From assembly GCA_963727805.1 (NCBI GenBank), contig CAVSHF010000005.1, positions 960,001 to 1,024,000 of the forward strand: a stretch of 64,000 nucleotides of DNA. The letters are read 5' to 3'. Source of the DNA: an uncultured Nitrospiraceae bacterium. Its GTDB lineage: Bacteria > Nitrospirota > Thermodesulfovibrionia > Thermodesulfovibrionales > Dissulfurispiraceae. The translations under genes and the position numbers were made by a program. Shown piece by piece: positions 10,131 through 31,633 of this stretch. The number at the start of each line of letters is the position of its first letter. Positions within the stretch are counted from its first letter, which is position 1. The notes under the pieces were generated by a model. The model had not been told where the DNA came from. It searched no databases and worked only from the letters and a program-made list of their open reading frames with translations.

Positions 10131-11045
10131 ATGCTCATGGGTAAGTTTCGTAAGGAGATTGTTTTAACTCTTTCGCTGCTTTTCGTGCTATGTTTTCCAG
10201 TAGCCGGACTGTGTACTCCTGAATATGCCGAGCAGACTAGTAAAAGTTGCGGTGACTGTCACGTTGATCCCGCGGGAGGCGGCAGTCTGACAAAAGATGG
10301 GTATGCATTCAAAGGACAATTGCGAATAAAGGGACTGTACAAGCCTCTTACAAACAGTCAACGTATTATCAGGTTTATCATAGGTTATGTTCACTTAATA
10401 ACAGCCATAATGTGGTTTGGTACCATTCTTTATGTACATCTCATTCTGAAGCCTGCTTATGCCGCCCAGGGTCTGCCACGAAGCGAGTTGCTAGTTGGAT
10501 GGAGTTGCATAGCTATAATGGCGTTAACAGGCACACTTCTTTCCATTGCGCGAGTGTCGAGTTGGTGGATGCTTTTTAATACAAGATTTGGAGTTCTGCT
10601 TACAATAAAAATTGTTTTGTTTCTAGTAATGGTTTTTTCGGCTATCTTTGTAACCTTCGTCATCGGACCGAAACTTAGGAAGAAAAGGAGTCTGGCTTTT
10701 GATCAGCAGAAACAAAATTTCATATCCGATGAGCTTTCGCAGTTTGATGGAAAGGAAGGACGTCCCGCGTACTTAGCGCTTAAAGGCAATATTTATGATG
10801 TCTCGAGCAGTAAACTTTGGCATGGCGGAGTACACATGAAGAGGCATTCTGCCGGCCTTGACCTGAGCGATGCTCTGAAAGCTGCACCCCATGGCGAGGA
10901 CAGGGTGCTCAAGATGAGGATTGTCGGTAAGCTGTTAAAAAGCGAACAAGCAAAAAAGCCAAAGCTCTTTTATATTCTGGCCTATACAAATCTAATAATC
11001 GTATTTCTCATAGTATTTGTTATCTGTCTCTGGCGTTGGTGGTAA
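10131..11045 (+). CDS. Fusion of monoheme cytochrome c, CopD-like TM segments and a cytochrome b5-like domain
   Basis: Signal peptide, CGDCH, three TMs, ELSQFDGKEGRPAY...IYDVS...HMKRHSAGLDLS...APHG, final TM. Confidence 0.75.
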   Translation: MLMGKFRKEIVLTLSLLFVLCFPVAGLCTPEYAEQTSKSCGDCHVDPAGGGSLTKDGYAFKGQLRIKGLYKPLTNSQRIIRFIIGYVHLITAIMWFGTILYVHLILKPAYAAQGLPRSELLVGWSCIAIMALTGTLLSIARVSSWWMLFNTRFGVLLTIKIVLFLVMVFSAIFVTFVIGPKLRKKRSLAFDQQKQNFISDELSQFDGKEGRPAYLALKGNIYDVSSSKLWHGGVHMKRHSAGLDLSDALKAAPHGEDRVLKMRIVGKLLKSEQAKKPKLFYILAYTNLIIVFLIVFVICLWRWW

Positions 11046-11701: not shown

Positions 11702-13240
11702 ATGGCTAATAGGGGTATATCCATGCGGATGGTTAGAGAAATCTTAAGACTGTATTATGGGCTGCATCTTGGCAAACGACAAATAAGCCGGTCCTGCAAA
11801 GTGTCGCCGAGCACAGTAGTAGATTATGTCCAGAAGGCCCAGGATAAGGGCATTTCATGGCCACTTCCTGAGGACCTTGATGACGCAAAGCTTGAAGCTA
11901 TGCTCAGTGAACGCAGTAGTCGGAAGACAGCCCTTCGTCCGCTGCCCCCAATGGAGGAGATTCATCGCGAGCTTCGCAAAAAGGGCGTCACCCTTCAACT
12001 GTTGTGGCTCGAATATAAAGAACGGCATCCTGAGGGGTATCAGTTTACGCAGTTCTGCGAGCATTATCACCGCTGGGAGAAAAACCTTGAGATAAGTTTA
12101 CGGCAGGAGCATCGCGCCGGCGAGAAGATGTTCATCGACTTTGCCGGCAAAGGGATACCCATCGTCGACTCTTTCACAGGCGAGAGCACCGAAGCTCAGA
12201 TCTTTGTGGCAGTCCTTGGAGCAAGCAACTATACCTATGTCGAAGCGCTCCCATCGCAGAGTCTCCCCTTCTGGATCAAGGCTCACATCAATGCTTTTGA
12301 ATACTTTCACGGTGTGAGCCAAATCCTTGTCCCGGACAATATCCGAGCAGCCGTATCGAAGTCCTGCCGATACGAACCCGACCTCAACCCCGTATATCTG
12401 AGTCTGGCGCAGCACTACGGTACCGCCATTATCCCTGCACGTCCGTATAAACCAAAAGATAAGGCAAAGGTGGAAGCCGGAGTATTGCTGGTCACCCGAT
12501 GGATCATTGCGGCATTGAGGAATCACACATTCTTCAGTATCGAGGAGCTTAATGCCAGCATCAGGGAACTTCTGGAACGCTTGAATACCCGGAAGTTCAG
12601 GAAACTAAACAGTACCCGCAGAGAACTCTTTGAGACCCTTGAGAGGCCGTATCTTAAGCCTTTGCCCGTTGAGCGGTATCGATACATCGACTTCAAGCGG
12701 CCAACGGTTAACATCGATTACCACGTCGACGTAGCGGATCATTACTACAGCGTTCCTTACCAGCTTCGTGGCAAAAAGTTAGAAGCCTTCCTCACTGTCG
12801 ATACGGTGGAGATCTTCCACAATAACAATCGCATTGTGACTCATCAACGCAGCTTCAAAGCAAGAGGATATACGACCATTGCTGAGCACATGCCGAAAGC
12901 GCATCAGAAGCATCTTGAGTGGACTCCATCGAGGATCATCCACTGGGCGGAGCAGACCGGCGCTGCCACAGCAAAGCTTGTCGAGACCATCCTGACGACG
13001 CGACCGCATCCGGAGCAGGGATTCAAATCCTGCATAGGCCTGTTGAGACTCGGCAAGAAGTACTCGCCGGAGAGACTGGAAGCAGCCTCTATGCGGGCGG
13101 TCCATATCAAGGCTTATTCATACAAGAGCGTCAAGTCGATGCTTGAAACCGGATTCGACCGTACTCCGATCACCGAACAAAAGGAGGTGACCCCGCCCTT
13201 ATATCATGACAATATCCGCGGTAAAGAGTACTTCAGTTGA
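11702..13240 (+). CDS. istA: IS21 transposase
   Basis: HRAGEKMFIDFAG, VPDN and KPKDKAKVE DDE motifs. Confidence 0.95.
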   Translation: MANRGISMRMVREILRLYYGLHLGKRQISRSCKVSPSTVVDYVQKAQDKGISWPLPEDLDDAKLEAMLSERSSRKTALRPLPPMEEIHRELRKKGVTLQLLWLEYKERHPEGYQFTQFCEHYHRWEKNLEISLRQEHRAGEKMFIDFAGKGIPIVDSFTGESTEAQIFVAVLGASNYTYVEALPSQSLPFWIKAHINAFEYFHGVSQILVPDNIRAAVSKSCRYEPDLNPVYLSLAQHYGTAIIPARPYKPKDKAKVEAGVLLVTRWIIAALRNHTFFSIEELNASIRELLERLNTRKFRKLNSTRRELFETLERPYLKPLPVERYRYIDFKRPTVNIDYHVDVADHYYSVPYQLRGKKLEAFLTVDTVEIFHNNNRIVTHQRSFKARGYTTIAEHMPKAHQKHLEWTPSRIIHWAEQTGAATAKLVETILTTRPHPEQGFKSCIGLLRLGKKYSPERLEAASMRAVHIKAYSYKSVKSMLETGFDRTPITEQKEVTPPLYHDNIRGKEYFS

Positions 13241-13333
13241 AAATCGGCTCTATGGGACAGCCAATAATCGACTAAGAGGCATCGACCAAGGGGTAAGTAT
13301 ACCCCACAAACATACTATAAGGAGGAGACAGCG

Positions 13334-14083
13334 TTGAATCACACTATCGAAAAACTCTCACAGATGAAGCTCTACACAATGGCAACGGCAGTGAAGGAGC
13401 AGCTTGAAAATCCTTCCCTTAGCAAACTGAGCTTTGAGGACAGATTCTCCATGATCATAGACCGGGAGTGGACTTCCAGGGAAGACAGAAAACTCACCAG
13501 AAGACTCAAGTCGGCACGCCTGAGGACCAATGCCACTATCGAAGATATCGACTATCAGCACCCCAGGGGATTGGACAAGTCGGTCGTCAGATCCCTGGCT
13601 TCTTGTCAGTGGATCTCTTCTCACCATAACGTGATCATCACCGGGCCGACCGGCATCGGCAAGACTTACCTTGCTGAGGCATTTGCAAACAAAGCCTGCC
13701 GAGAAGGATTCACTGCTGTACAATACCGGTCAACAAGACTCTTTGAGGAACTGAGGATCGCAAAAGCTGACGGCAGTTTCTTCAAGGTCCTCGGAAGACT
13801 TGCAAAGACGGACCTCCTCGTCATTGACGACTGGGCCGTGGACCCACTGACCGAAGATGAGCGCGGCCACTTCCTGGAAGTCATGGAAGACAGATACGGA
13901 CTGAAGGCGACAATCATTACCAGCCAGTATCCCGTCGCCAAATGGCATGATCGCATCGGAGAGCCTACAAAAGCCGACGCCATACTCGACAGGATCGTCC
14001 ATAACTCACACAAGATAGCTTTGAAGGGAGAATCGATGAGAAAAACTAAGACAAACTTGACGAAAGGCGAACGCTCTTCGTAA
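13334..14083 (+). CDS. istB: IS21 helper ATPase
   Basis: GPTGIGKT, LLVIDDW, ADAILDRIVH. Confidence 0.95.
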   Translation: MNHTIEKLSQMKLYTMATAVKEQLENPSLSKLSFEDRFSMIIDREWTSREDRKLTRRLKSARLRTNATIEDIDYQHPRGLDKSVVRSLASCQWISSHHNVIITGPTGIGKTYLAEAFANKACREGFTAVQYRSTRLFEELRIAKADGSFFKVLGRLAKTDLLVIDDWAVDPLTEDERGHFLEVMEDRYGLKATIITSQYPVAKWHDRIGEPTKADAILDRIVHNSHKIALKGESMRKTKTNLTKGERSS

Positions 14084-14678: not shown

Positions 14679-17309
14679 TTAAGACGTCTTGCCTGAGACT
14701 CCTTCCGGCTTGCTCATCAGCTCGTAATTACCGTTTTTGAACCTTTGGGCATAATGCGTGATGGTGGTATCATCGCGCAGCAGTGCATCAAGTTTCCTCG
14801 CAAAGGCGATGAGCCTTCCGAGCTGGTCGAGTACATCCTCCATCTGTTCCCGGCTGATATTGGCCAGCCTCGCGATGAGCAGATCTCCCTTCGTCCAGAT
14901 CGTGAAACCGTAATCCTTAAGAATTGAAGCGATGAACTGCACCCTCCGCGAGCGCTGAGATATATCGGTCGCCCCCCCGGAGAAACGAAAATAGATATGA
15001 TTGTTTCTGGGGTTCTCGCTACAATAACAGTCCACGATATTGAAGTGGTATCCGAACTTCAGGCTGAGATTTACATACTCTCTCGATACAACGGCCACAT
15101 TCATAAGAGGGGAACTCATGCTCTCCGAGTGGATATCGGGCATGCGTGTCATGCTCATAAAAAAGTCCTTCATCTTCAAGGGTACCGTCTCATTATGCCA
15201 TGCGCCCGGATGCATCATCCCCCCCACAATCGCCTTAAGTGGGATTGAAACAATTTCGTTTACCGTCACCGTTTCCCTTGAGCCCTTTGTCCCTTTGGAG
15301 ACACTTCTGTCTAGGCCACCGCCCATGTCAATTATCACAATGCCGGCTGGGACAGGCAGGTCCAGTGTTATGGCAGCGTAGTCTTTCAGACTTGCCCTCC
15401 TATGTCGGGTGCAGTCAACTAGTTCCATGATCGATTTTTCATGAATGAACCTGAGGATGTCATGCATGGTCTTGCATTGCTCAGGCAGGAAATTACTATG
15501 CAAGGGTTCGATTAGATTAAGGGGTGAAATATGCGTCAACACATACCTTTTCTTCAGGTATTCATGTCCCTCGGTTATATCCGGCACATTTGCAGAAGAG
15601 CAATCGCGCACTTCATCAACGATTCCCTCGTATACGGCGCTGCCCTCGTCGTCCACGATTACCGTTACCTTCATTCCGTCTTTAAGTATTCGCGTGGCGT
15701 CATCCGTGTTCACGATAGTCGGTATCCTGCACTCCCTAGAGAGTGAAGCCATATGACTGGTAGGGGTACCGATGTCGGTGATTATAGCTGATACGTCATT
15801 CATCAGGCGTACGAAAACCGAGAAGTCGCGCTTTGAGACGAGGATTGCGCCTTTAGGAAAATCTCCGGCATCGTCCGGTGTCATTGCCACAAAGACCTTT
15901 CCTGCGCCGATGCCCTTTTGGACGCTGATACCTTTATTCCGCATCAATGTCGGCCTTGATTCAAAATGCCTCACGACGGACGAGCAATTACTGCCTTCAC
16001 CTTCTCCCATCCGCAGTTCCCTTGCCTGCAATATAAAAATCCTTTCATCTCGGTCAAGCGCCCATTCGATATCCTGAGGCCTCCTGCAATGCTTCTCGAT
16101 TAACTGGGCCTGAAGTGCGATTTCAGTCACAAGCCTCGGATCAACTACCATTTTGTCCCTCATCTCACGAGGAGTCGCAATCGTGTCGATTCCACCCCCT
16201 GGTATGAACACAGTCATCGATTCCTTCATGCCGCATCTCATGTCAGTTATTTGAGGAGATGCACCCCTGTTGACTCTGTAGATATCCGCTTCAACCAACC
16301 CTTCGACGATGGTCTTGCCGAGGCCCCAGTTAGCGCTGATCAAAAGGGTGTCCTTGTTGCCGATCGGTCCGCTCGGGTCCACGGAATACACAACCCCGCT
16401 CGATACCGCCTCCACCATCGCCACGCACCCGACTGACATTTTCATCTTACTGGCATCATAGCCAAATCGCTTCTGGTACGCCATGGAATGCAGCGAGAAG
16501 AGGCTCGCGACTACCTTTTTATAAGCCTCCTTTATGGCCAAGGCTTCCAGTGGAACATTCAGCAGGGTGTCGAATTGTCCGGCGAATGAAAGCTTGCCGT
16601 CTTCTTCCTCAGCGCTGCTTCTTACCGCGATGGAGCAAGATGCCCCGCATTTTATCTTCATCCTCCTGATTGCAGCATCGAACTCTCTATCCAGTGCCGG
16701 AGGTATTTTACCAATGATAATCGCAGTGCGCAGCGCAACAAAGTCCTCTTCGGATATCTCACCTTTTTCCATTAGAGACTCAACCTTGTCATTGAGTCCA
16801 TTGAATTGCAGAAATTCGTCGAACGAGCGTGTAGTGATAAAAAAGGCATCTGGGACATTGAGGTCGAGCACATTTTTTAGCTCGGCGAGTCCGGCATTTT
16901 TGCCCCCTACATCATAGTACATATCCCATGATGTATCTTCGATGAAAACAACCCTTTCACCGGATGTAGAGGCCGAGTCCGACAACATCTCCACGATCCT
17001 GCCGTCTATTCTGATGAAGGCATCGCGCAGCCCCGGATATCCGTTGCGTGTGAGCATGTCGAAGTTTTTTATTGAACTCGAGACGTCAGCGGAAAGCTCC
17101 GCGTATGCGCTCTCGATATAATTGATATCGAACAGATATTCGCCGCTGAGTTTCTCTCCCATCTCGGCGATCATCTCAATAGCTCTGTTGTGGCTTGTGA
17201 GGACCTGCCGGAACCTGCTGAACAGGACTTGAAATGGCAGTGGTGGATGGAGCGACCTCTTCATTTTCCTGCTGATGCTGCTCAATAAACCTGCAAGACT
17301 ATGATTCAT
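14679..17309 (-). CDS. PEP synthase/PPDK-like dikinase (ATP-grasp + phospho-His domain, atypical C-terminus)
   Basis: VGGKNAGL, AVRSSAEEED...SFAGQF, ANWGLG, PQDIEWA...LQAR, GTPTSHMASLSRE. Confidence 0.85.
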   Translation of the reverse strand: MNHSLAGLLSSISRKMKRSLHPPLPFQVLFSRFRQVLTSHNRAIEMIAEMGEKLSGEYLFDINYIESAYAELSADVSSSIKNFDMLTRNGYPGLRDAFIRIDGRIVEMLSDSASTSGERVVFIEDTSWDMYYDVGGKNAGLAELKNVLDLNVPDAFFITTRSFDEFLQFNGLNDKVESLMEKGEISEEDFVALRTAIIIGKIPPALDREFDAAIRRMKIKCGASCSIAVRSSAEEEDGKLSFAGQFDTLLNVPLEALAIKEAYKKVVASLFSLHSMAYQKRFGYDASKMKMSVGCVAMVEAVSSGVVYSVDPSGPIGNKDTLLISANWGLGKTIVEGLVEADIYRVNRGASPQITDMRCGMKESMTVFIPGGGIDTIATPREMRDKMVVDPRLVTEIALQAQLIEKHCRRPQDIEWALDRDERIFILQARELRMGEGEGSNCSSVVRHFESRPTLMRNKGISVQKGIGAGKVFVAMTPDDAGDFPKGAILVSKRDFSVFVRLMNDVSAIITDIGTPTSHMASLSRECRIPTIVNTDDATRILKDGMKVTVIVDDEGSAVYEGIVDEVRDCSSANVPDITEGHEYLKKRYVLTHISPLNLIEPLHSNFLPEQCKTMHDILRFIHEKSIMELVDCTRHRRASLKDYAAITLDLPVPAGIVIIDMGGGLDRSVSKGTKGSRETVTVNEIVSIPLKAIVGGMMHPGAWHNETVPLKMKDFFMSMTRMPDIHSESMSSPLMNVAVVSREYVNLSLKFGYHFNIVDCYCSENPRNNHIYFRFSGGATDISQRSRRVQFIASILKDYGFTIWTKGDLLIARLANISREQMEDVLDQLGRLIAFARKLDALLRDDTTITHYAQRFKNGNYELMSKPEGVSGKTS

Positions 17310-17679
17310 TATCACTCTTCTCTAGTGCACGCAGTATGGACGCCTTTAAATCCTTGATCCTGACCGGCTTCGGGAAAAAGTCGAAAACGTCTCCCCTCAA
17401 GGCCTCGATGGCTGTATCCAGATTGGCAAAAGCTGTAATCATTATGACCTTAGTCGTAGGGTTTAGTTCCTTTACAGTTCTGAGAACCTCCATTCCATCT
17501 ATGCCTTTCATCTTGAAATCGGTAATGACCACATCAAAAGGTTTTTCCTTGAGCCTGGCCAGTGCTGATTCGCCATTGAGGAATGTCTCCACGTAATATC
17601 CGTCATGCTCCAGTGACATTTTTGCCATGTCCCCAACTATCTTTTCGTCATCGATGACCATGATGTTATATTGACTCAT
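17299..17679 (-). CDS. Stand-alone response regulator receiver
   Basis: VIDDE, ITDFKMKGIDG, MITAF, FPKP; no output domain. Confidence 0.9.
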   Translation of the reverse strand: MSQYNIMVIDDEKIVGDMAKMSLEHDGYYVETFLNGESALARLKEKPFDVVITDFKMKGIDGMEVLRTVKELNPTTKVIMITAFANLDTAIEALRGDVFDFFPKPVRIKDLKASILRALEKSDNES

Positions 17680-19081
17680 GTCTTGCCTCCTTTGCACGTT
17701 TGTAAGATGGTAACTCTATTGTAAAGGTGGTGCCGAGGCTTACCGTGCTGTCAACCTTTATATTCCCATTGTGGTTCATTATGATCCCGTAACTGACAGA
17801 CAGACCGAGACCAGTACCGCTGCTCTTGGTGCTGAAGAAGGGGTCAAAAATATTAGGCAGATATTCCGGAGGGATTCCCTGGCCCGTATCCTGAACACGT
17901 ATCATAACTGTATCTTCTCCCACGGCTTTAGTCTCAACCGTCAGAGTACCACTCGGAGACATAGCCTGCACCGCATTTGCAATAAGGTTTACCATTACCT
18001 GTTCTATCTGATGCTCATCGATGTAAACATGTGGCAGACCTTGTCCGAAAATCAGCTTCGACTCGATATTAGATATGTCCAGAGTATTCTGCATGAGCCG
18101 TACCGATTTCCTCACTATCTCATTGATGTCCGCTTTTTTTAACCTCGCCTCCCTAGATTTCGAAAAATCAAGAAGGTTTTTGACGACATCCTCCATCCTC
18201 TTTGTTTCCTCATAGGCTTTGCTGATCAAAGATAGTCTGCTCTCTTTATTGAGAAAATCATAAAGATCCAGATAATTCTGGGTTATCATCGAGATGTTAT
18301 TAAGGGGATTGGTCAATTCGTGGGCAACCCCCGCTGTCAGAACGCCAAGGGATGCAAGCTTCTTAGCCTGGATTATCTCCTCTCCCTTATTCTTCAGCTC
18401 TTCGGACATACGATTTATTGCAAGTATTACCGACCCAAATTCATCTTTGGATCTCCCGTCCTCAATTTTGCTGAAATTTCCTTCTGCTATGGACATTGCC
18501 ACTCTTTCAATAGCCCTGAGGGATATTGATATCTTCTTTGATACGAGCCTTCCCAAGACTATGGATAGAAACAGTATACACAGGAAAGAGATGAACAGGA
18601 GCCTTTTGGCATTGAAAATGATGTCGTTGACGCGCTTCCTCTCAAGTTGAGTTTTAGCCTTAAAAAAATCTCTTAACTTCCTGCCCACCGTGCTCAATTC
18701 TGATTTGAGCCTCGGATCTTTCCCATGGGTCCTGTCAAGTTCATCGATGACTTTTGAATATTCGTCCAGATACGACCTCAACAACTGAAGATTGTTGTCC
18801 CCTATGACGCGAATCAGATCTTCTTTGGTCGCATCGATGGATTTCATCGAGTCCCCTATGTTTTCATGAATGTTGATAAGCCATTTCTCGTCGTTGTAAA
18901 GCAGAAAGTTCTTTTCCGAAATCCTCATTTCGAGGAAGGATGCGTTCAGGTCATCCGATATCTCCACAAACCTGAGCTTTGCCAAGACTTGGTTCATATT
19001 TTGAAAGGCAAAAAGGCCTATCATGATAATAAAAGCTACATTAAAGAAAAAAGAAAGCTGTATTTTATGTTCTATTTTCAT
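17666..19081 (-). CDS. Membrane sensor histidine kinase (periplasmic sensor, HAMP, HisKA, HATPase)
   Basis: Two TMs, GVAHELTNPL, NLIANA, DTGQGI, FDPFF, GTGLGL. Confidence 0.93.
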   Translation of the reverse strand: MKIEHKIQLSFFFNVAFIIMIGLFAFQNMNQVLAKLRFVEISDDLNASFLEMRISEKNFLLYNDEKWLINIHENIGDSMKSIDATKEDLIRVIGDNNLQLLRSYLDEYSKVIDELDRTHGKDPRLKSELSTVGRKLRDFFKAKTQLERKRVNDIIFNAKRLLFISFLCILFLSIVLGRLVSKKISISLRAIERVAMSIAEGNFSKIEDGRSKDEFGSVILAINRMSEELKNKGEEIIQAKKLASLGVLTAGVAHELTNPLNNISMITQNYLDLYDFLNKESRLSLISKAYEETKRMEDVVKNLLDFSKSREARLKKADINEIVRKSVRLMQNTLDISNIESKLIFGQGLPHVYIDEHQIEQVMVNLIANAVQAMSPSGTLTVETKAVGEDTVMIRVQDTGQGIPPEYLPNIFDPFFSTKSSGTGLGLSVSYGIIMNHNGNIKVDSTVSLGTTFTIELPSYKRAKEARHESI

Positions 19082-19090
19082 ACATTCCTT

Positions 19091-20299
19091 TTAATGCGGC
19101 ACGGGGCATCTGGGCATCTCAGACTGTTCCTTCCGCACAGGAAGATACCACAATATGCCGTCGACAATCATCAATAATCCGGCCGTTATCAGCATTGCAT
19201 CGACTATGATCAGCGAGCTGACAGCAAAGTAACTCACGAACACAATTCCCATACTCGAAAAGGAGACGCCCGTTCTTGCCAATGCAAGACCGGTTCTCGC
19301 CCTAGCATATATAGACCGGTAGCATGCAGCAACAGTCCGTTGCCCCGCAAGGACATTTCTTTCCCGTGCTAGCTGGGTCCGCACCTTGCTTGCCGGTTTG
19401 GGATAAAGGATTGTGCAATGGTCCGCCAGGAAATCCCCAAGGCGCGCGAGCATCGTCCCCTTTGTTACAACATTTATGCCACTATCCTCTATAAAGTGAT
19501 AATTCTCCAAAAAGGATAAAGTCGCGGATGTGACCTCAACAAGGGTCTGATGCTCGTGAGGCTTTATCCACGATTTCCTGATCCTTATATAACCGAATAG
19601 GCCCAAAGCCCCGACAAGAAGGCCCACCACAAGCATGGCCCAATACAGATAAAGATGATCTCCCAGCTTAAATGTGTGCAAGAGTATATCCGCCACCGCT
19701 ATGGTTCCAAGTCCCCACCTGAGAACGGCCAGACTTGTCCTTCCCTTTGATAAGTCATTCCTGTAGCAGGCAAGCCTCGTTCTCCAATGGGCCATGGTAT
19801 TTCGCCATAGAGCAAGGCCGGTCCTCTCTGTCCCGGCAAGACGCCCGGGTTTGGCGTGAAGAAAGTCCTTTATAAACCAGCGGATGTCCTCCCGAAGTGC
19901 AAACCACAACTCATATTCGTTCACCCCGAAAAATCTCCTCGCTTCATTTACAATCATAGGATCTTCCGGATTGTTAGCTGCTATTATAATCTTATTGCCT
20001 TCGCTCGCAACGGGAAACCAGTAACTCATAAAAAGCCTGTCGTCATCGACTCCATCGAGCAGTTCCCGGGGTATGGGCAATCTTTCATCGTATTCGATAT
20101 GCGGACAATGATAATAATCCGAACAGGCCTGCAGGAGTGCATGCCTGGTTACTCCATATTCCCTTATGAGCACCGTCTCAATATCGACAGACCTGGCCTC
20201 AGCTGAGTTTATCGCCTCGAATATTTTGTCCTTGCCCAGGATGCCGTTATCGGACAGAAGGAGGAATCTTTCGGCCTCTGTTTTAATCATTGTTATCAT
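19091..20299 (-). CDS. T2SSE_N/MshEN-like domain plus 2 extended DUF202-like membrane repeats
   Basis: GspE-N-like start (IIIAANNPED); two units of six RTxLAxx heptads followed by two TMs. Confidence 0.7.
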   Translation of the reverse strand: MITMIKTEAERFLLLSDNGILGKDKIFEAINSAEARSVDIETVLIREYGVTRHALLQACSDYYHCPHIEYDERLPIPRELLDGVDDDRLFMSYWFPVASEGNKIIIAANNPEDPMIVNEARRFFGVNEYELWFALREDIRWFIKDFLHAKPGRLAGTERTGLALWRNTMAHWRTRLACYRNDLSKGRTSLAVLRWGLGTIAVADILLHTFKLGDHLYLYWAMLVVGLLVGALGLFGYIRIRKSWIKPHEHQTLVEVTSATLSFLENYHFIEDSGINVVTKGTMLARLGDFLADHCTILYPKPASKVRTQLARERNVLAGQRTVAACYRSIYARARTGLALARTGVSFSSMGIVFVSYFAVSSLIIVDAMLITAGLLMIVDGILWYLPVRKEQSEMPRCPVPH

Positions 20300-21929
20300 C
20301 GCTGAATATCACTTTTTCCCACATATAGACAGGTTTTCCGTAATCAGGAATTGGAATTTCCATCTCGCCAAGGCAATATGGGAATTGTCTCCGTGCTTTC
20401 TCGGCAGGGGCATACCAGTAGAGCCCATCGGCGATGAGAAACAATCCCACAACGATCAACAGGCAGTACAAGACAGTCCATGCTATGACATCCGGACCGT
20501 AATAAGCCAGCAGCGCTATTCCGACAGCTGCCAAACTCATTCCAGTCCTGATAATTGCAAGCCCGGTCCGTGACCTCGCCATCATGGTACGCAGTCTTGC
20601 CATAACATTTCGCCTGTCCGCCAACATCGTCCTTTCTAGGGCGAGGCCGGTTGTCGCCCAAATGCCCCGTATATGCGATTGCCTGACAGGCGGCACGTGG
20701 GCGTGCAGGTCCCTAAAATAAGTTCTTTTGTGTACTGGCGGAAAAACTATATCCCAAATATTGATCTTCTCCTCAGCTTCTTTGACTGAGTCGACACACA
20801 CGATGCCCGCGCGCCGGCCGGGCAAGTACCAGTAAAAACCTTCCAATGCCATCATGATCCCTGTCACGATGAGGCCTGCATCGAAAAGGGTCCATCCACC
20901 CGTGGGGAATTGCCTGAGCAGCACTATGCCAAGTCCGGCAAATGCAACACCGGTACGCGTAAAGGCGAGTCCGTTGCGGCCCCTCGCCATTAATGTCCTG
21001 TGGCAGGCAAGTGTCGTCCTTTCCTCTGCCAGATCCGTCCTGTCGCTGGCCAGGAATCGCCGACGCATTACCGGCGTCAGATTGCTCCAGTCTGCTCGCA
21101 ATTCATCAGCGCCCGCCGCAGGTCTGGTTCGGAAAAAACATGGATCATTGCCAGGATTCGACACTTCAAGCACAGTCGAATTTCCCGTTGGATGTGTCGA
21201 TACGCACTCAGGCATCTTCTTGCCAGTCCTCCTAGCTGGTAAATACCACAAAAATCCGTCGACGGCCATCACCATGCCGGCGACAAGGAGTGCTGCCTCA
21301 AGGACTGTCGAATATCCAATCCCAAATATCCTGAAGAGAACTATCGAAATTGTAATAAAAGAGATCCCGGTTCTCATGAAAGCGAGGCCTGTCCTTCCTT
21401 TGGCTAGGGAAGTCCTGTAACATGCCAGCACCGACCGTCTTTCCGAGAGAAATGTCCGCACTAACGCGAGAGGCGTTCTAGCGGCGGCAACGCCGAAACT
21501 AGGATTCAAATCCAGGTTGTTCTCGATGAGCCTGATAATGTCTGAGGGAAGCGCTACCAGCAAGTTGATTCTCTTTACATTCAGCGTCTTCTTTATTTCC
21601 CCGATAGTAGACATGTCGGGATTGTACGCAATAACTTCTGCTTGGTCATTGTCGAAATAGAGGGGTATCCAAAGGGCGCCTTTCAGTCTCTCCAGTTCCA
21701 GCATTCGCACTATCTTTGAAGAGACCATTATATCCTCATCGTATTCCACGAAAGGATATCCGTAATATTCGGTCAGACAGAACAGTATTTCATGTTTGGG
21801 GATGCCCCTTGACAGTAAAAGATCTTCAGGGTATTTACCTGCAGCCGAGGATTCGTCTGTTATGTGTAGCAGGTCTTCCTCGGTGATGAATCCCTGCCTG
21901 ATCAGTCTTGAAAACTTTTTGTCAAACAT
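20283..21929 (-). CDS. T2SSE_N/MshEN-like domain plus 3 extended DUF202-like membrane repeats
   Basis: LIRQGFITEEDL...YYGYPFVEY...VIAYNP; three units of six RTxLAxx heptads followed by two TMs ending (D/E)GxxWYxP. Confidence 0.7.
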   Translation of the reverse strand: MFDKKFSRLIRQGFITEEDLLHITDESSAAGKYPEDLLLSRGIPKHEILFCLTEYYGYPFVEYDEDIMVSSKIVRMLELERLKGALWIPLYFDNDQAEVIAYNPDMSTIGEIKKTLNVKRINLLVALPSDIIRLIENNLDLNPSFGVAAARTPLALVRTFLSERRSVLACYRTSLAKGRTGLAFMRTGISFITISIVLFRIFGIGYSTVLEAALLVAGMVMAVDGFLWYLPARRTGKKMPECVSTHPTGNSTVLEVSNPGNDPCFFRTRPAAGADELRADWSNLTPVMRRRFLASDRTDLAEERTTLACHRTLMARGRNGLAFTRTGVAFAGLGIVLLRQFPTGGWTLFDAGLIVTGIMMALEGFYWYLPGRRAGIVCVDSVKEAEEKINIWDIVFPPVHKRTYFRDLHAHVPPVRQSHIRGIWATTGLALERTMLADRRNVMARLRTMMARSRTGLAIIRTGMSLAAVGIALLAYYGPDVIAWTVLYCLLIVVGLFLIADGLYWYAPAEKARRQFPYCLGEMEIPIPDYGKPVYMWEKVIFSDDNND

Positions 21930-25666: not shown

Positions 25667-26008
25667 AAATACAATCCCGCTCTTGCGTAGCTGAGTATTC
25701 ACAACACCCTCAGTCATCTAACTAATGGGCCTTTGATGTCAAATGTAAATATCGCTGATACGCTTTTATCAATAGATGACAAACTCGCCAAGTTCACACA
25801 AAAGTCGGAAGCACCAAAATAACGAGTGATATTATGTGGAAATAATGGCAAACAATGACTTTGATTCATAGCTTGGTTTTGATAACCTAAAATTGACCAG
25901 CAAAGCGGGGTTTTGATAACCGAAAATTGATCATCCCAAGCATATCTCCTCATGATGAAGTGGGGCATAGTTTCCAAGTTGCCCCATTTTTATGCTGAGG
26001 AGGAAGGA

Positions 26009-27508
26009 GTGCTCAAGATGGATCAGTATGAATTGGTCAGGACGGGTCATCGGGTGTACGGACAGAACATCAGTGAGTTATCAAGATTAACGGGCCATTC
26101 TCGGAACACGATCAAAAAAGCCATACGCGGAGAGCCGTGGGGGTACAAGGAAAGGAGCCATCAGCCGTTTCCTGCCCTTGGCGATTACATGGTGGCTATC
26201 GATAACTGGCTTAAGAGCGACAAAGACAAACCGAAGAAGCAGCGGCATACGGCGCACCGGATATACAATAGGTTAGTGGATGAGCGTGACTATAAAGGAG
26301 GAGAGTCCACTGTTCGCCGCTATGTGAGACTTGCCAGGGTGATTTTGGGGATCGAAACACCGCGCGTCTTTATCCCATGCAATCCAGAGGCAGGGCAGGA
26401 AGCGGAAGTTGACTGGGGCACTGCGACGGCGATCATTGCAGGGGAAGAACTCCGGCTGAAGTTTTTCTGCATGCGCAGTAAGTATTCCGGCAAACACTTC
26501 GTACGTTTCTATCTTTGTGAGAGACAACAGGCATTCCTGGATGCGCATATCCACGCGTTTTCCTTCTATGACGGTATATTCCCGGTCCTAATCTACGACA
26601 ATCTAACGACAGCGGTACAGAAGGTGTTGCGAGGGCGCGATCGCATCGAGCAGTCCGGATTCAGCAAGTTCAAGGCCTACTACAGCTTTGAAGCCCGGTT
26701 TTGCAATCCCGACAGCGGTAATGAGAAAGGCGGCGTTGAAGGACTGGTCGGTTATGCACGACGCAATTACATGGTCCCTATACCGGAGGCAGCTAGCCTG
26801 GAAGAGCTGAACGAGGAGATTCTTCGGCAGTGCGTCGCTTACGGCGATCACAAGATGGCTGGACGCGACCTCACCGTGAACGAATTATACGAAGAGGAGA
26901 AAGGGCATCTTCTTGCCCTTCCCGAAGCTGTATTCAGCAATGTGCAGACATCAGTGGGCCGGGCCGACAAGTATGCCACGGTCATCGTGGATAAGAACCG
27001 ATATTCGGTACCAAGCCGTTATGCTGGGTTCAGAGTGAAGGTGCTGCTCCGTGCTGATCGGGTGGAGATCTTTACAGGCACGAAGAAACTGACAACGCAT
27101 GAGCGTTTGTACGGCAACAACAAATGGGCTCTGAAGGCTGACCATTATCTTGAACTTATCCAACAGAGGCCGTTGGCATTCAATAGTGCACGGCCAATCC
27201 AGCAATGGAGGAAGAGCTGGCCGCAGTTCCTGCACCTTCTTTTGGAGCGTTTTTGCCGTTCCCAGGGTGAAACAAAAGGAATCAAGGACTTCATCACCGT
27301 TCTTATGTTCTATCGTGATTATGAGGCCGGCGAGATTGAAGCGGCAGTGGAACTGGCCATAGAGAACAACATCAGCACCAGCGACGGCGTGCATCATGTG
27401 CTCGCTTACACGGGTGACACCGTCAGCCCCATACCCCCATTGGCCTGCTGGCCGACGCTGCCACCTCCGGATTTGGCTGTCTATGCGCAGTTTGGAGGTG
27501 TTCAATGA
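26009..27508 (+). CDS. istA: IS21 transposase
   Basis: GQEAEVDWG, IYDNL, GNEKGGVE. Confidence 0.93.
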   Translation: MLKMDQYELVRTGHRVYGQNISELSRLTGHSRNTIKKAIRGEPWGYKERSHQPFPALGDYMVAIDNWLKSDKDKPKKQRHTAHRIYNRLVDERDYKGGESTVRRYVRLARVILGIETPRVFIPCNPEAGQEAEVDWGTATAIIAGEELRLKFFCMRSKYSGKHFVRFYLCERQQAFLDAHIHAFSFYDGIFPVLIYDNLTTAVQKVLRGRDRIEQSGFSKFKAYYSFEARFCNPDSGNEKGGVEGLVGYARRNYMVPIPEAASLEELNEEILRQCVAYGDHKMAGRDLTVNELYEEEKGHLLALPEAVFSNVQTSVGRADKYATVIVDKNRYSVPSRYAGFRVKVLLRADRVEIFTGTKKLTTHERLYGNNKWALKADHYLELIQQRPLAFNSARPIQQWRKSWPQFLHLLLERFCRSQGETKGIKDFITVLMFYRDYEAGEIEAAVELAIENNISTSDGVHHVLAYTGDTVSPIPPLACWPTLPPPDLAVYAQFGGVQ

Positions 27509-28278
27509 AAGCCGGAGAGTCGATGGAACTGCAGGCAAATCTCAGGGCGCTGAATCTATCAGCCATGGCTCGCGACATTGAGGGGTTCGTGCGTCAAGCC
27601 CGGGAAGCCGGGATCGGCTATGACGAGTTTCTCCTCAATCTGACCGTAGCAGAACTGCAAGCCAGATCGGAAAGCAGGTTGAACCGCCGCGTCAGGGAGG
27701 CAAAGTTCCCCATTATCAAGCCACTGGAGACCTTCGATCTTGCAGCAGTACCGGAACTGGACCTTCGGCTGTTCCGGGAACTTACCGCAGAAGGCTATAT
27801 AAAGGAGTGCCGGAATGTCATCTTTCTTGGAAGAAGTGGCACTGGCAAGACGCATATGTCCACTGCCCTGGGGATCGAAGCCTGTAAAAACAACTTTCGG
27901 ACCCGGTTTGTCACCTGTTACGGCCTGGTCAACGAACTGATCGAAGCAAGACAGCAGCGGACGCTACAGCGTCTTATCCAAAGGTATGTTCGCTACGATC
28001 TGCTCATTCTGGACGAACTGGGGTATATACCTTTCTCCAAGGAAGGAGCGGAACTACTGTTTCAGGTTTTGGCGGAAAGGCACGAGAAAGGGTCAGTGAT
28101 GATCACAACCAATCTTGGGTTTGCCGACTGGACCCAAGTATTTGGCGATCCGGTAATGACCGCCGCGCTGCTGGATCGGCTGACCCATAAAGCCCATATC
28201 ATTAACTGCACCTGGGACAGCTATCGTCTGAAGCAGAGCCTTAAGGAAAAAAGAAAACATGGAGGCAAGGAGAAATAA
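27505..28278 (+). CDS. istB: IS21 helper ATPase
   Basis: GRSGTGKT, LLILDELGY, ALLDRLTH; ATGA overlap with istA. Confidence 0.95.
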   Translation: MKAGESMELQANLRALNLSAMARDIEGFVRQAREAGIGYDEFLLNLTVAELQARSESRLNRRVREAKFPIIKPLETFDLAAVPELDLRLFRELTAEGYIKECRNVIFLGRSGTGKTHMSTALGIEACKNNFRTRFVTCYGLVNELIEARQQRTLQRLIQRYVRYDLLILDELGYIPFSKEGAELLFQVLAERHEKGSVMITTNLGFADWTQVFGDPVMTAALLDRLTHKAHIINCTWDSYRLKQSLKEKRKHGGKEK

Positions 28279-30730: not shown

Positions 30731-31633
30731 TTAGTCCCGGTAGTAAAGCCTCTTACCTTCAATGCCCTTCAATGCTGCATCTGTTCTTACGCTATCGCTT
30801 ACTTTTCTATAATTATATCTAAAATCAAATTCAGTTGTGTATTTCTGTAAGTGTTGCTCACCAACATGATGGAAGGTTCCAACTAGTCCGCGCTTCAATA
30901 AGCTGAAATAATTTTCCGCTGTATTAATATGCGCTATCCCCTTTACATATTGCTTATGGCTATGAAAAACCTTGCCGTGATCGGCAAATTCTGTTCCAAC
31001 TTTGTTATAGCTTTTATGCTCATCGGTCATTAAATGTGATTCCTTATTTATTTGTTCAATTAGGATACTTCTTAATGTCTTTGCGGTTACGTTAGGTACA
31101 TGAAATGACCGTGCATCACCATTCCGTTCTACCAGTGTTAGGATTTTCATTTTATGATCTGCGCCACGTGCGCCTTTTTTCTGAGTGTCATTATTGCCCC
31201 AATACGTTTCATCGGCTTCTACGATTTTGCCCTTACCGCCGAGCTTATTGATAAATTCAGGGGACTTCATGGCTTCTCTAATTCTATGAGTCATGAACCA
31301 CGCGCTCTTGTATGTGATGCCAAGCATGCGGTGTAACTGGTGTGAGCTCATGCCTTTCTTAGAGGAGCAAATAAGATATGTCGCGTATAACCATTTATCA
31401 AGAGAGAGATGACTACCCTCAAACAGAGTGCCGACAGTTACAGTAAATTGCTTTCTACATTTGCCACACTTCAATACACCCTTTCTTGTGGCCTTACCTT
31501 CTAATCGATATATCTTTTCAGTATTTCCGCAATGAGGGCAAACAGGGCCATTAGGCCACCTGATAGATTCAAGATATTCCCTTGCTGCTTCTTCACTTTT
31601 AAAATGATCTGCTAATAAATTTGATGTTCCCAT
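30731..31633 (-). CDS. IS1595-family transposase
   Basis: Zn ribbon CPHC...CGKC, VEADETY, LMTDE, HINTAENYF. Confidence 0.95.
   Translation of the reverse strand: MGTSNLLADHFKSEEAAREYLESIRWPNGPVCPHCGNTEKIYRLEGKATRKGVLKCGKCRKQFTVTVGTLFEGSHLSLDKWLYATYLICSSKKGMSSHQLHRMLGITYKSAWFMTHRIREAMKSPEFINKLGGKGKIVEADETYWGNNDTQKKGARGADHKMKILTLVERNGDARSFHVPNVTAKTLRSILIEQINKESHLMTDEHKSYNKVGTEFADHGKVFHSHKQYVKGIAHINTAENYFSLLKRGLVGTFHHVGEQHLQKYTTEFDFRYNYRKVSDSVRTDAALKGIEGKRLYYRD

Follow-up and report, generated by a model that had tools for sequence, protein, structure and literature searches.

Can two neighbouring bacterial genes, one encoding three and the other two copies of an arginine-rich membrane unit, together build a five-membered anion pore resembling that of the yeast VTC complex? 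The question is raised by a gene pair, here called A and B, in a stretch of 64,000 nt (the window) from an uncultured, sulfur-metabolising Nitrospiraceae bacterium (GTDB lineage Nitrospirota; Thermodesulfovibrionia; Thermodesulfovibrionales; Dissulfurispiraceae), comprising positions 960,001 to 1,024,000 of the forward strand of contig CAVSHF010000005.1 in assembly GCA_963727805.1. Based on Pfam, a heptad scan and, for A, an AlphaFold2 model, gene A (20283..21929, minus strand; 548 aa) encodes an MshEN-fold domain and three extended DUF202 units, R1 to R3, while gene B (19091..20299, minus strand; 402 aa) encodes an MshEN-fold domain and two extended DUF202-type units, R4 and R5. According to the open reading frame coordinates, the two genes share 17 nt, B starting shortly before A ends. 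The two products are paralogues with 31% identity over 381 aa and, judging from their sequences, probably form a positively charged pore.

Five arginine-heptad units in two proteins

Each of the five units comprises six heptads that run into a first transmembrane helix (TM1), a short loop and a second transmembrane helix (TM2). The heptads of R1 (A151-235; 21225..21479, minus strand, as for all units) read RTPLALV RTFLSER RSVLACY RTSLAKG RTGLAFM RTGISFI from A151, those of R2 (A290-374; 20808..21062) RRFLASD RTDLAEE RTTLACH RTLMARG RNGLAFT RTGVAFA from A290, and those of R3 (A426-512; 20394..20654) TTGLALE RTMLADR RNVMARL RTMMARS RTGLAII RTGMSLA from A426. In B, the most divergent unit of the five, R4 (B159-243; 19571..19825), has RTGLALW RNTMAHW RTRLACY RNDLSKG RTSLAVL RWGLGTI from B159, and R5 (B307-391; 19127..19381) has RTQLARE RNVLAGQ RTVAACY RSIYARA RTGLALA RTGVSFS from B307. 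All five strings had been quoted in an earlier, sequence-only reading of this DNA and were found as given, with Arg opening 29 of the 30 heptads; the first heptad of R3 opens with a family-invariant Thr. Runs of at least five Arg at seven-residue spacing occur three times in A and twice in B. The pattern is not due to chance, because the observed number of runs was not matched in any of 20,000 shuffles made for each protein, and even a single run appeared in just 26 (A) and 17 (B) of them.

Scanned unit by unit against the Pfam DUF202 model (PF02656, cut-off 23.4 bits), R1, R2 and R3 passed with 28.8, 27.0 and 33.6 bits, respectively, and R4 (20.9 bits, E 5e-4) and R5 (14.4 bits, E 0.052) fell below the cut-off. 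The whole-protein scores are 53.4 bits for A, in three stretches and above the gathering cut-off, and 16.3 bits for B, below it. The sub-threshold units are nevertheless homologous to those of A, with R5 being 46-47% identical to R1-R3 and PF02656 present in many B orthologues, in agreement with the DUF202 assignment made in the sequence-only reading.

The AlphaFold2 model of A, built from 136 sequences (predicted local distance difference test [pLDDT] 82, predicted template modelling score [pTM] 0.76), shows the heptads and TM1 of each unit as a single continuous helix of ~52 residues (H151-202, H286-340 and H425-477), followed by the short loop and TM2; hydropathy likewise indicates two transmembrane helices per unit. 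The earlier description of six heptads followed by two transmembrane helices is therefore correct as to the heptads and the number of helices, but TM1 does not come after the heptads, as it belongs to the same helix. A fold search with this model matched the membrane part only to generic bundles (Z≤10.1) with no VTC chain listed, a single chain being unable to test for a ring.

Conservation of the pair, the 3+2 count and the stalk

Relatives of A and B numbered 856 and 1014, respectively, among 8000 scored candidates each, the named ones belonging to Nitrospirota and some Desulfobacterota. In the window's phylum, A was matched at E<1e-50 in 60 of 401 genomes. A search of these genomes with the C-terminal part of B matched 59, one of them (G076) through its A units only, leaving 58 that carry B. 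Every one of the 58 also carries A, there is no B-only genome among the 401, and A is cut by a contig end in both of the A-bearing genomes that appear to have no B (G076 and G085). We examined 42 wide loci, consisting of 39 with wide flanks from A-bearing genomes of the phylum and three others. A clean 3+2 arrangement is present in 37; two carry a tandem duplication A-A'-B, giving 3+3+2 (L036 in G322 and L037 in G386, A copies 71-74% identical), and the remaining three (L043, L051 and L069) contain frameshifts or breaks. The best 80 of 218 metagenome loci comprise 52 with a complete 3+2 arrangement, 27 cut by contig ends and one (L114) with a short one-unit B near a contig end. As these loci are related, the counts show conservation rather than independent origins. 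The strict pairing and constant unit count that the sequence-only reading had looked to are thus borne out among orthologues.

The units are also position-specific, with 62-72% identity within a type and 33-48% between types across 95 non-redundant pairs; R1 groups with R4, and the linkers between units span 43-64 residues. The stalk of six heptads measures exactly 42 residues in 91, 95, 95, 95 and 92 of the 95 pairs for R1 to R5, respectively, while in single-unit relatives it varies from 7 to 20 Arg heptads. Single-unit proteins can thus vary the length of their stalk, and the A/B pair keeps it constant, as an in-register bundle of five stalks would require. Mutual-information covariation over the 95 A/B pairs (effective number 56, underpowered) gave no signal clear of background. 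Among proteins of 960-2740 aa, with 8000 candidates scored, there was no natural A+B fusion, which is weak evidence; the search found only P0122, a single metagenome record in which two A units are joined to a large CHAT-domain protein, possibly through a frameshift artefact. A plasmid search gave no match, and the only matches in the ESM Atlas, below 0.9, were clusters of DUF202 and of DUF202/MshEN proteins.

Helix register and relation to the VTC pore

When conservation was pooled by heptad position over the 30 heptads, mean entropy was lowest at position 1 (R, 0.02), followed by positions 2 (T, 0.18), 5 (A, 0.38) and 4 (L/M, 0.50), with 0.67-0.83 at positions 3, 6 and 7. Positions 1, 2, 5 and 4 can be read as d, e, a and g, which would correspond to the interface pattern of Type-2 helical barrels, whose interface is made by a, d, e and g, with a and d facing the lumen (bioRxiv 2021.01.20.427391). 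In designed barrels described in the same source, a large Leu or Met at the flanking g position goes with pentamers and not with larger rings.

The VTC membrane domain contains three copies of Vtc1 and one each of Vtc3 and Vtc4, with five TM1 helices lining the pore; K24 and R31 of Vtc1 form basic rings and M42 a constriction (PMC9911596, bioRxiv 2023.01.27.525886). VTC structures in the PDB include 7YTJ, 8I6V and 9UMG. A profile built from 30 single-unit relatives returned Vtc1 chains as its top four matches (E 0.0016-0.011), and the same profile aligns with that of the A/B units (hhalign 99.8%, E 2e-28), which suggests an indirect and modest homology between the A/B units and the Vtc1 membrane domain. 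Through the single-unit profile, heptads 4, 5 and 6 align to Vtc1 K24, R31 and N38, and 98-100% of family members have Arg at both of the ring-matching heptads, 4 and 5, in each of the five units. In these profile alignments the arginines therefore share the register of the basic rings that line the VTC pore, consistent with the arginine-ringed channel envisaged in the sequence-only reading and with a predicted lumen-facing orientation. M42 falls on heptad position 5, so that both predicted lumen positions are pore-lining in VTC. The residues at this constriction position in R1 to R5 are Ser, Ala, Ser, Gly and Ser.

Single-unit and five-unit relatives

A profile of 78 units searched against 1.84 billion representatives returned three-unit, two-unit and many single-unit proteins with long Arg-heptad stalks. 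The single-unit, two-TM DUF202 proteins (P0264-P0329) have stalks of R-T-x-L-A-x-x heptads. P0319, a 476-aa protein known from a single record, is one chain in which short linkers join five DUF202 stretches, and a three-unit partial relative, P0381, shares 33% identity with it; no viral relative of P0319 was found. P0319 is apparently a separate, single-chain pseudo-pentamer, a hint that two-helix units may favour assemblies of five. Its AlphaFold2 model, from a two-sequence alignment, shows five helical hairpins (pLDDT 45, pTM 0.41) whose fold matches are generic helical repeats, and is of too low quality to be relied on. Two further records link DUF202 to signalling domains: P0270 is a fusion of one long-stalk unit with a receiver domain, and in P0353, which may have arisen as a deletion chimera, a partial DUF202 is combined with parts of a receiver and of PPDK_N.

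The window's own genome also encodes a canonical single-unit DUF202 protein (G000:C5:571220-571657; L155:7218-7658), whose stalk is short and which has a third hydrophobic segment. It lies in a run of TauE, USP, DUF202 and sulfur-transport (PF04143) genes, divergent from a kinase and a sigma54 regulator. TauE was found within 1.5 kb in only seven of 30 single-unit DUF202 loci, which makes for a weak independent test of context.

N-terminal MshEN-fold domains

The sequence-only reading had described the heptad units of A and B correctly but omitted the MshEN-fold domain at the N-terminus of each. PF05157 is above its cut-off in both proteins, covering residues 1-141 of A (21507..21929, minus strand; E 8.6e-7) and about residues 8-150 of B (19850..20278, minus strand; E 9.2e-9). 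Residues 1-140 of the A model match MshE-N (5HTL) with Z 13.6 and a root-mean-square deviation of 3.5 over 137 aligned residues, and also match XpsE-N and PilF domains. MshEN domains are reported to bind cyclic di-GMP through tandem RLGxxLxxxG...LxxxLxxQ motifs that open with RLGxx(L/V/I)(L/V/I)xxG (PMC5013675). The opening RLG motif is present in none of 136 A and none of 136 B sequences, and a role as cyclic di-GMP receptor was rejected for this reason. We infer instead a docking or dimerisation role, by analogy with the N-terminal domains of GspE and PilB.

Genomic neighbourhood and candidate cargo

Three minus-strand genes identified by Pfam follow B in the window: a HAMP-HisKA-HATPase sensor kinase (17666..19081) 9 nt downstream, a receiver-only response regulator (17299..17697), and a dikinase-like enzyme with PPDK_N and PEP-utilizer (His-swivel) domains that scores below the PEP-synthase cut-off (14679..17315). 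The swivel domain of the last contains a TSH motif in translation, which we take to be the phospho-histidine site. Downstream of B, the kinase is found in 35, the receiver in 37 and the dikinase-like gene in 34 of the 42 wide loci, some of which have no room for them. Upstream of A, with the same restriction, TauE occurs in 28 of the 42, and TauE, Alph_Pro_TM and USP genes in 28-29. This block is headed in 29 of the 42 loci by a conserved protein of ~165 aa (e.g. L050:16574-17074) with no Pfam or NCBIfam match.

Polyphosphate, the first cargo named in the sequence-only reading, is unlikely, because the polyphosphate kinase PPK1 was detected in three and PPK2 in none of the 58 carrier genomes, of which 37 are at least 90% complete. 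The claim is further weakened by the lack of a match to the VTC polymerase family PF09359 in the window's own, 100%-complete genome; Pfam likewise detected neither TTM nor SPX in the two proteins. With regard to sulfur, the substrates of TSUP/TauE proteins in sulfate reducers are described as unassigned (PMC5840216, PMC4641369), and a TauE together with an associated membrane protein rose in Dissulfuribacter under thiosulfate disproportionation (PMC13490349).

Several features were recorded around the operon. Its region is flanked by two IS21-type transposase/ATPase gene pairs, recognised from their translations, at 11702-14083 and 25952-28278 of the window. An IS1595 transposase lies at 30731-31633, and a 304-aa CopD and cytochrome b5-like protein is encoded at 10131-11045 on the plus strand. 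A broken fragment of gene A with stops, corresponding to residues 1-167 and about 66% identical, is located on the same contig (G000:C5:4351-4850).

Proposed assembly and alternative explanations

We lean, by a modest degree, towards a pseudo-pentamer of one A and one B whose Arg residues are stacked in six rings. It would conduct or bind a small oxyanion, with the neighbouring phosphorelay in control. A and B would be partner subunits of the inner membrane, their five units standing parallel in a ring in the manner of the five-subunit VTC membrane domain. Each long helix would turn its Arg and a small residue (Ala, Ser or Gly) towards the central lumen, with Thr and Leu/Met facing the neighbouring helices. 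Two of the six Arg rings would match the basic rings of VTC, one would lie deeper in the membrane, and three would extend the stalk into the cytoplasm. Such a ring could pass a small or oligomeric oxyanion in a regulated manner, or could bind it in a well. The likeliest cargo would be a sulfur oxyanion or else a phosphate or pyrophosphate species, and not long polyphosphate. The MshEN-fold domains may provide docking or gating, with the phosphorelay or the dikinase-like enzyme of the operon as the probable partner. A bolder version, which we regard as improbable but worth stating, would make the pair a bacterial counterpart of VTC built from other parts, namely a two-chain pseudo-pentameric pore with six Arg rings in sulfur-cycling bacteria without known polyphosphate kinases. 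The dikinase-like enzyme or the phosphorelay would dock on its MshEN-fold domains, and a sulfur oxyanion (sulfite, thiosulfate or polythionate) or another polyanion would pass through the pore gated or fed by phosphoryl transfer.

A number of observations weigh against the pseudo-pentameric pore. The A/B unit profile itself retrieved no VTC chain from the PDB at E≤10, and the Vtc1 link depends on the single-unit profile, whose best match is modest (E 0.0016). VTC subunits have three transmembrane helices, the third of which takes part in the subunit interface (PMC9911596, bioRxiv 2023.01.27.525886), and this helix is missing from the A/B units. The record of P0319 is a single one on a 2-kb contig, two genomes have a 3+3+2 arrangement, and the conserved 3+2 count may simply have been passed down from a single ancestral operon; kin are not independent. 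A narrow lumen holding thirty Arg side chains may act as an anion trap instead of a conductor. In the window's own genome the TauE-Alph_Pro_TM-USP block is on another contig (C3), so the sulfur link is not local there. A correlation with dsrA, present in 53 of 58 carriers compared with 203 of the 401 phylum genomes overall, was rejected as evidence for a sulfur cargo; it is confounded by lineage, since the carrier families are nearly all dsrA-positive anyway.

The most constant neighbours of the pair are signalling genes, both subunits carry a domain of a protein-docking type, and P0270 and P0353 join DUF202 units or pieces of them to receiver and, in the latter, PPDK_N parts. These features would suit a non-conducting five-unit Arg barrel that acts as an oxyanion sensor or scaffold, binding oxyanions in its rings and using the MshEN-fold domains to signal to the kinase, receiver and dikinase-like enzyme. 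We nevertheless judge this unlikely, given that the small residues at the Vtc1 M42 constriction position in all five units suit an open path, that the sole characterised relative, VTC, is a translocation channel, and that P0353, with every part truncated, looks like a deletion chimera. It is rather doubtful, too, that five is a historical accident and that the proteins assemble otherwise, as A2B2, as separate homo-oligomers of six or four units, or as a helical bundle that is not a ring. The missing third helix and the 3+3+2 loci would fit such assemblies, as would the common ancestry of A and B, seen in their sequence identity and in the grouping of R1 with R4, through which the count may have been inherited. 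They are harder to reconcile with the strict co-occurrence of A and B, the locked stalk length and the position-specific identity of the units, with the separate five-unit chain P0319, and with the large Leu/Met at the flanking g position, although extending the pentamer rule of designed barrels to these proteins is an extrapolation because the core residues differ. Finally, the homology and register match to the basic rings of Vtc1, together with an operon-encoded, dikinase-like ATP-using enzyme, could point to translocation of polyphosphate as in VTC; the near absence of polyphosphate kinases from carriers, the lack of a VTC polymerase match in the window's own genome and the lack of TTM and SPX in A and B make this very improbable.

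Significance and comparison with known systems

The A/B pair is a real and conserved architecture within the known DUF202 family that is apparently undescribed, and is not a member of VTC. No literature on the pair or on a combination of MshEN with DUF202 was found in a search, by title or opening of the abstract, that covered few subscription journals, nor did anything on the pair turn up around YidH/VTC or bacterial Vtc1 homologues, and no functional study of bacterial DUF202/YidH was found in the literature searched, where YidH was seen in a table row only. DUF202 is widespread in bacteria, yet a solved channel exists only for the eukaryotic VTC relatives. The two-chain, five-unit version would be a complex of defined make-up whose pore helices could be altered one at a time, and whether bacterial DUF202 proteins form VTC-type anion channels thereby becomes directly testable. 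The movement of sulfur oxyanions in sulfate reducers and sulfur disproportionators is described as poorly assigned (PMC5840216, PMC13490349), and the pair would, if our reading is correct, be a new candidate for it. If the pair does turn out to be such a counterpart of VTC, the same might hold for DUF202 proteins across bacteria, as pentameric anion channels with tunable stalks.

Compared with known systems, A and B share with bacterial single-unit DUF202 proteins (YidH-like; PF02656) the same motif and profile, but the latter have one unit and no MshEN-fold domain. With the MshEN/GSPII N-domains of Vibrio cholerae MshE (5HTL), XpsE-N (2D28) and Thermus thermophilus PilF they share the fold over ~140 residues, although in A and B the RLG motif is missing and no ATPase follows the domain. 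Yeast VTC resembles the pair in its DUF202 helix pair, in basic residues at seven-residue spacing in the same register, and in a total of five units. It differs in having three transmembrane helices per unit rather than two, and in A and B the units are fused 3+2 in two chains. Relative to VTC, the pair further has three extra cytoplasmic heptads, Arg at the N38 position and small residues at the M42 constriction, and it carries MshEN-fold domains in place of SPX and TTM, with no polyphosphate polymerase domain; its five-unit assembly is a prediction.

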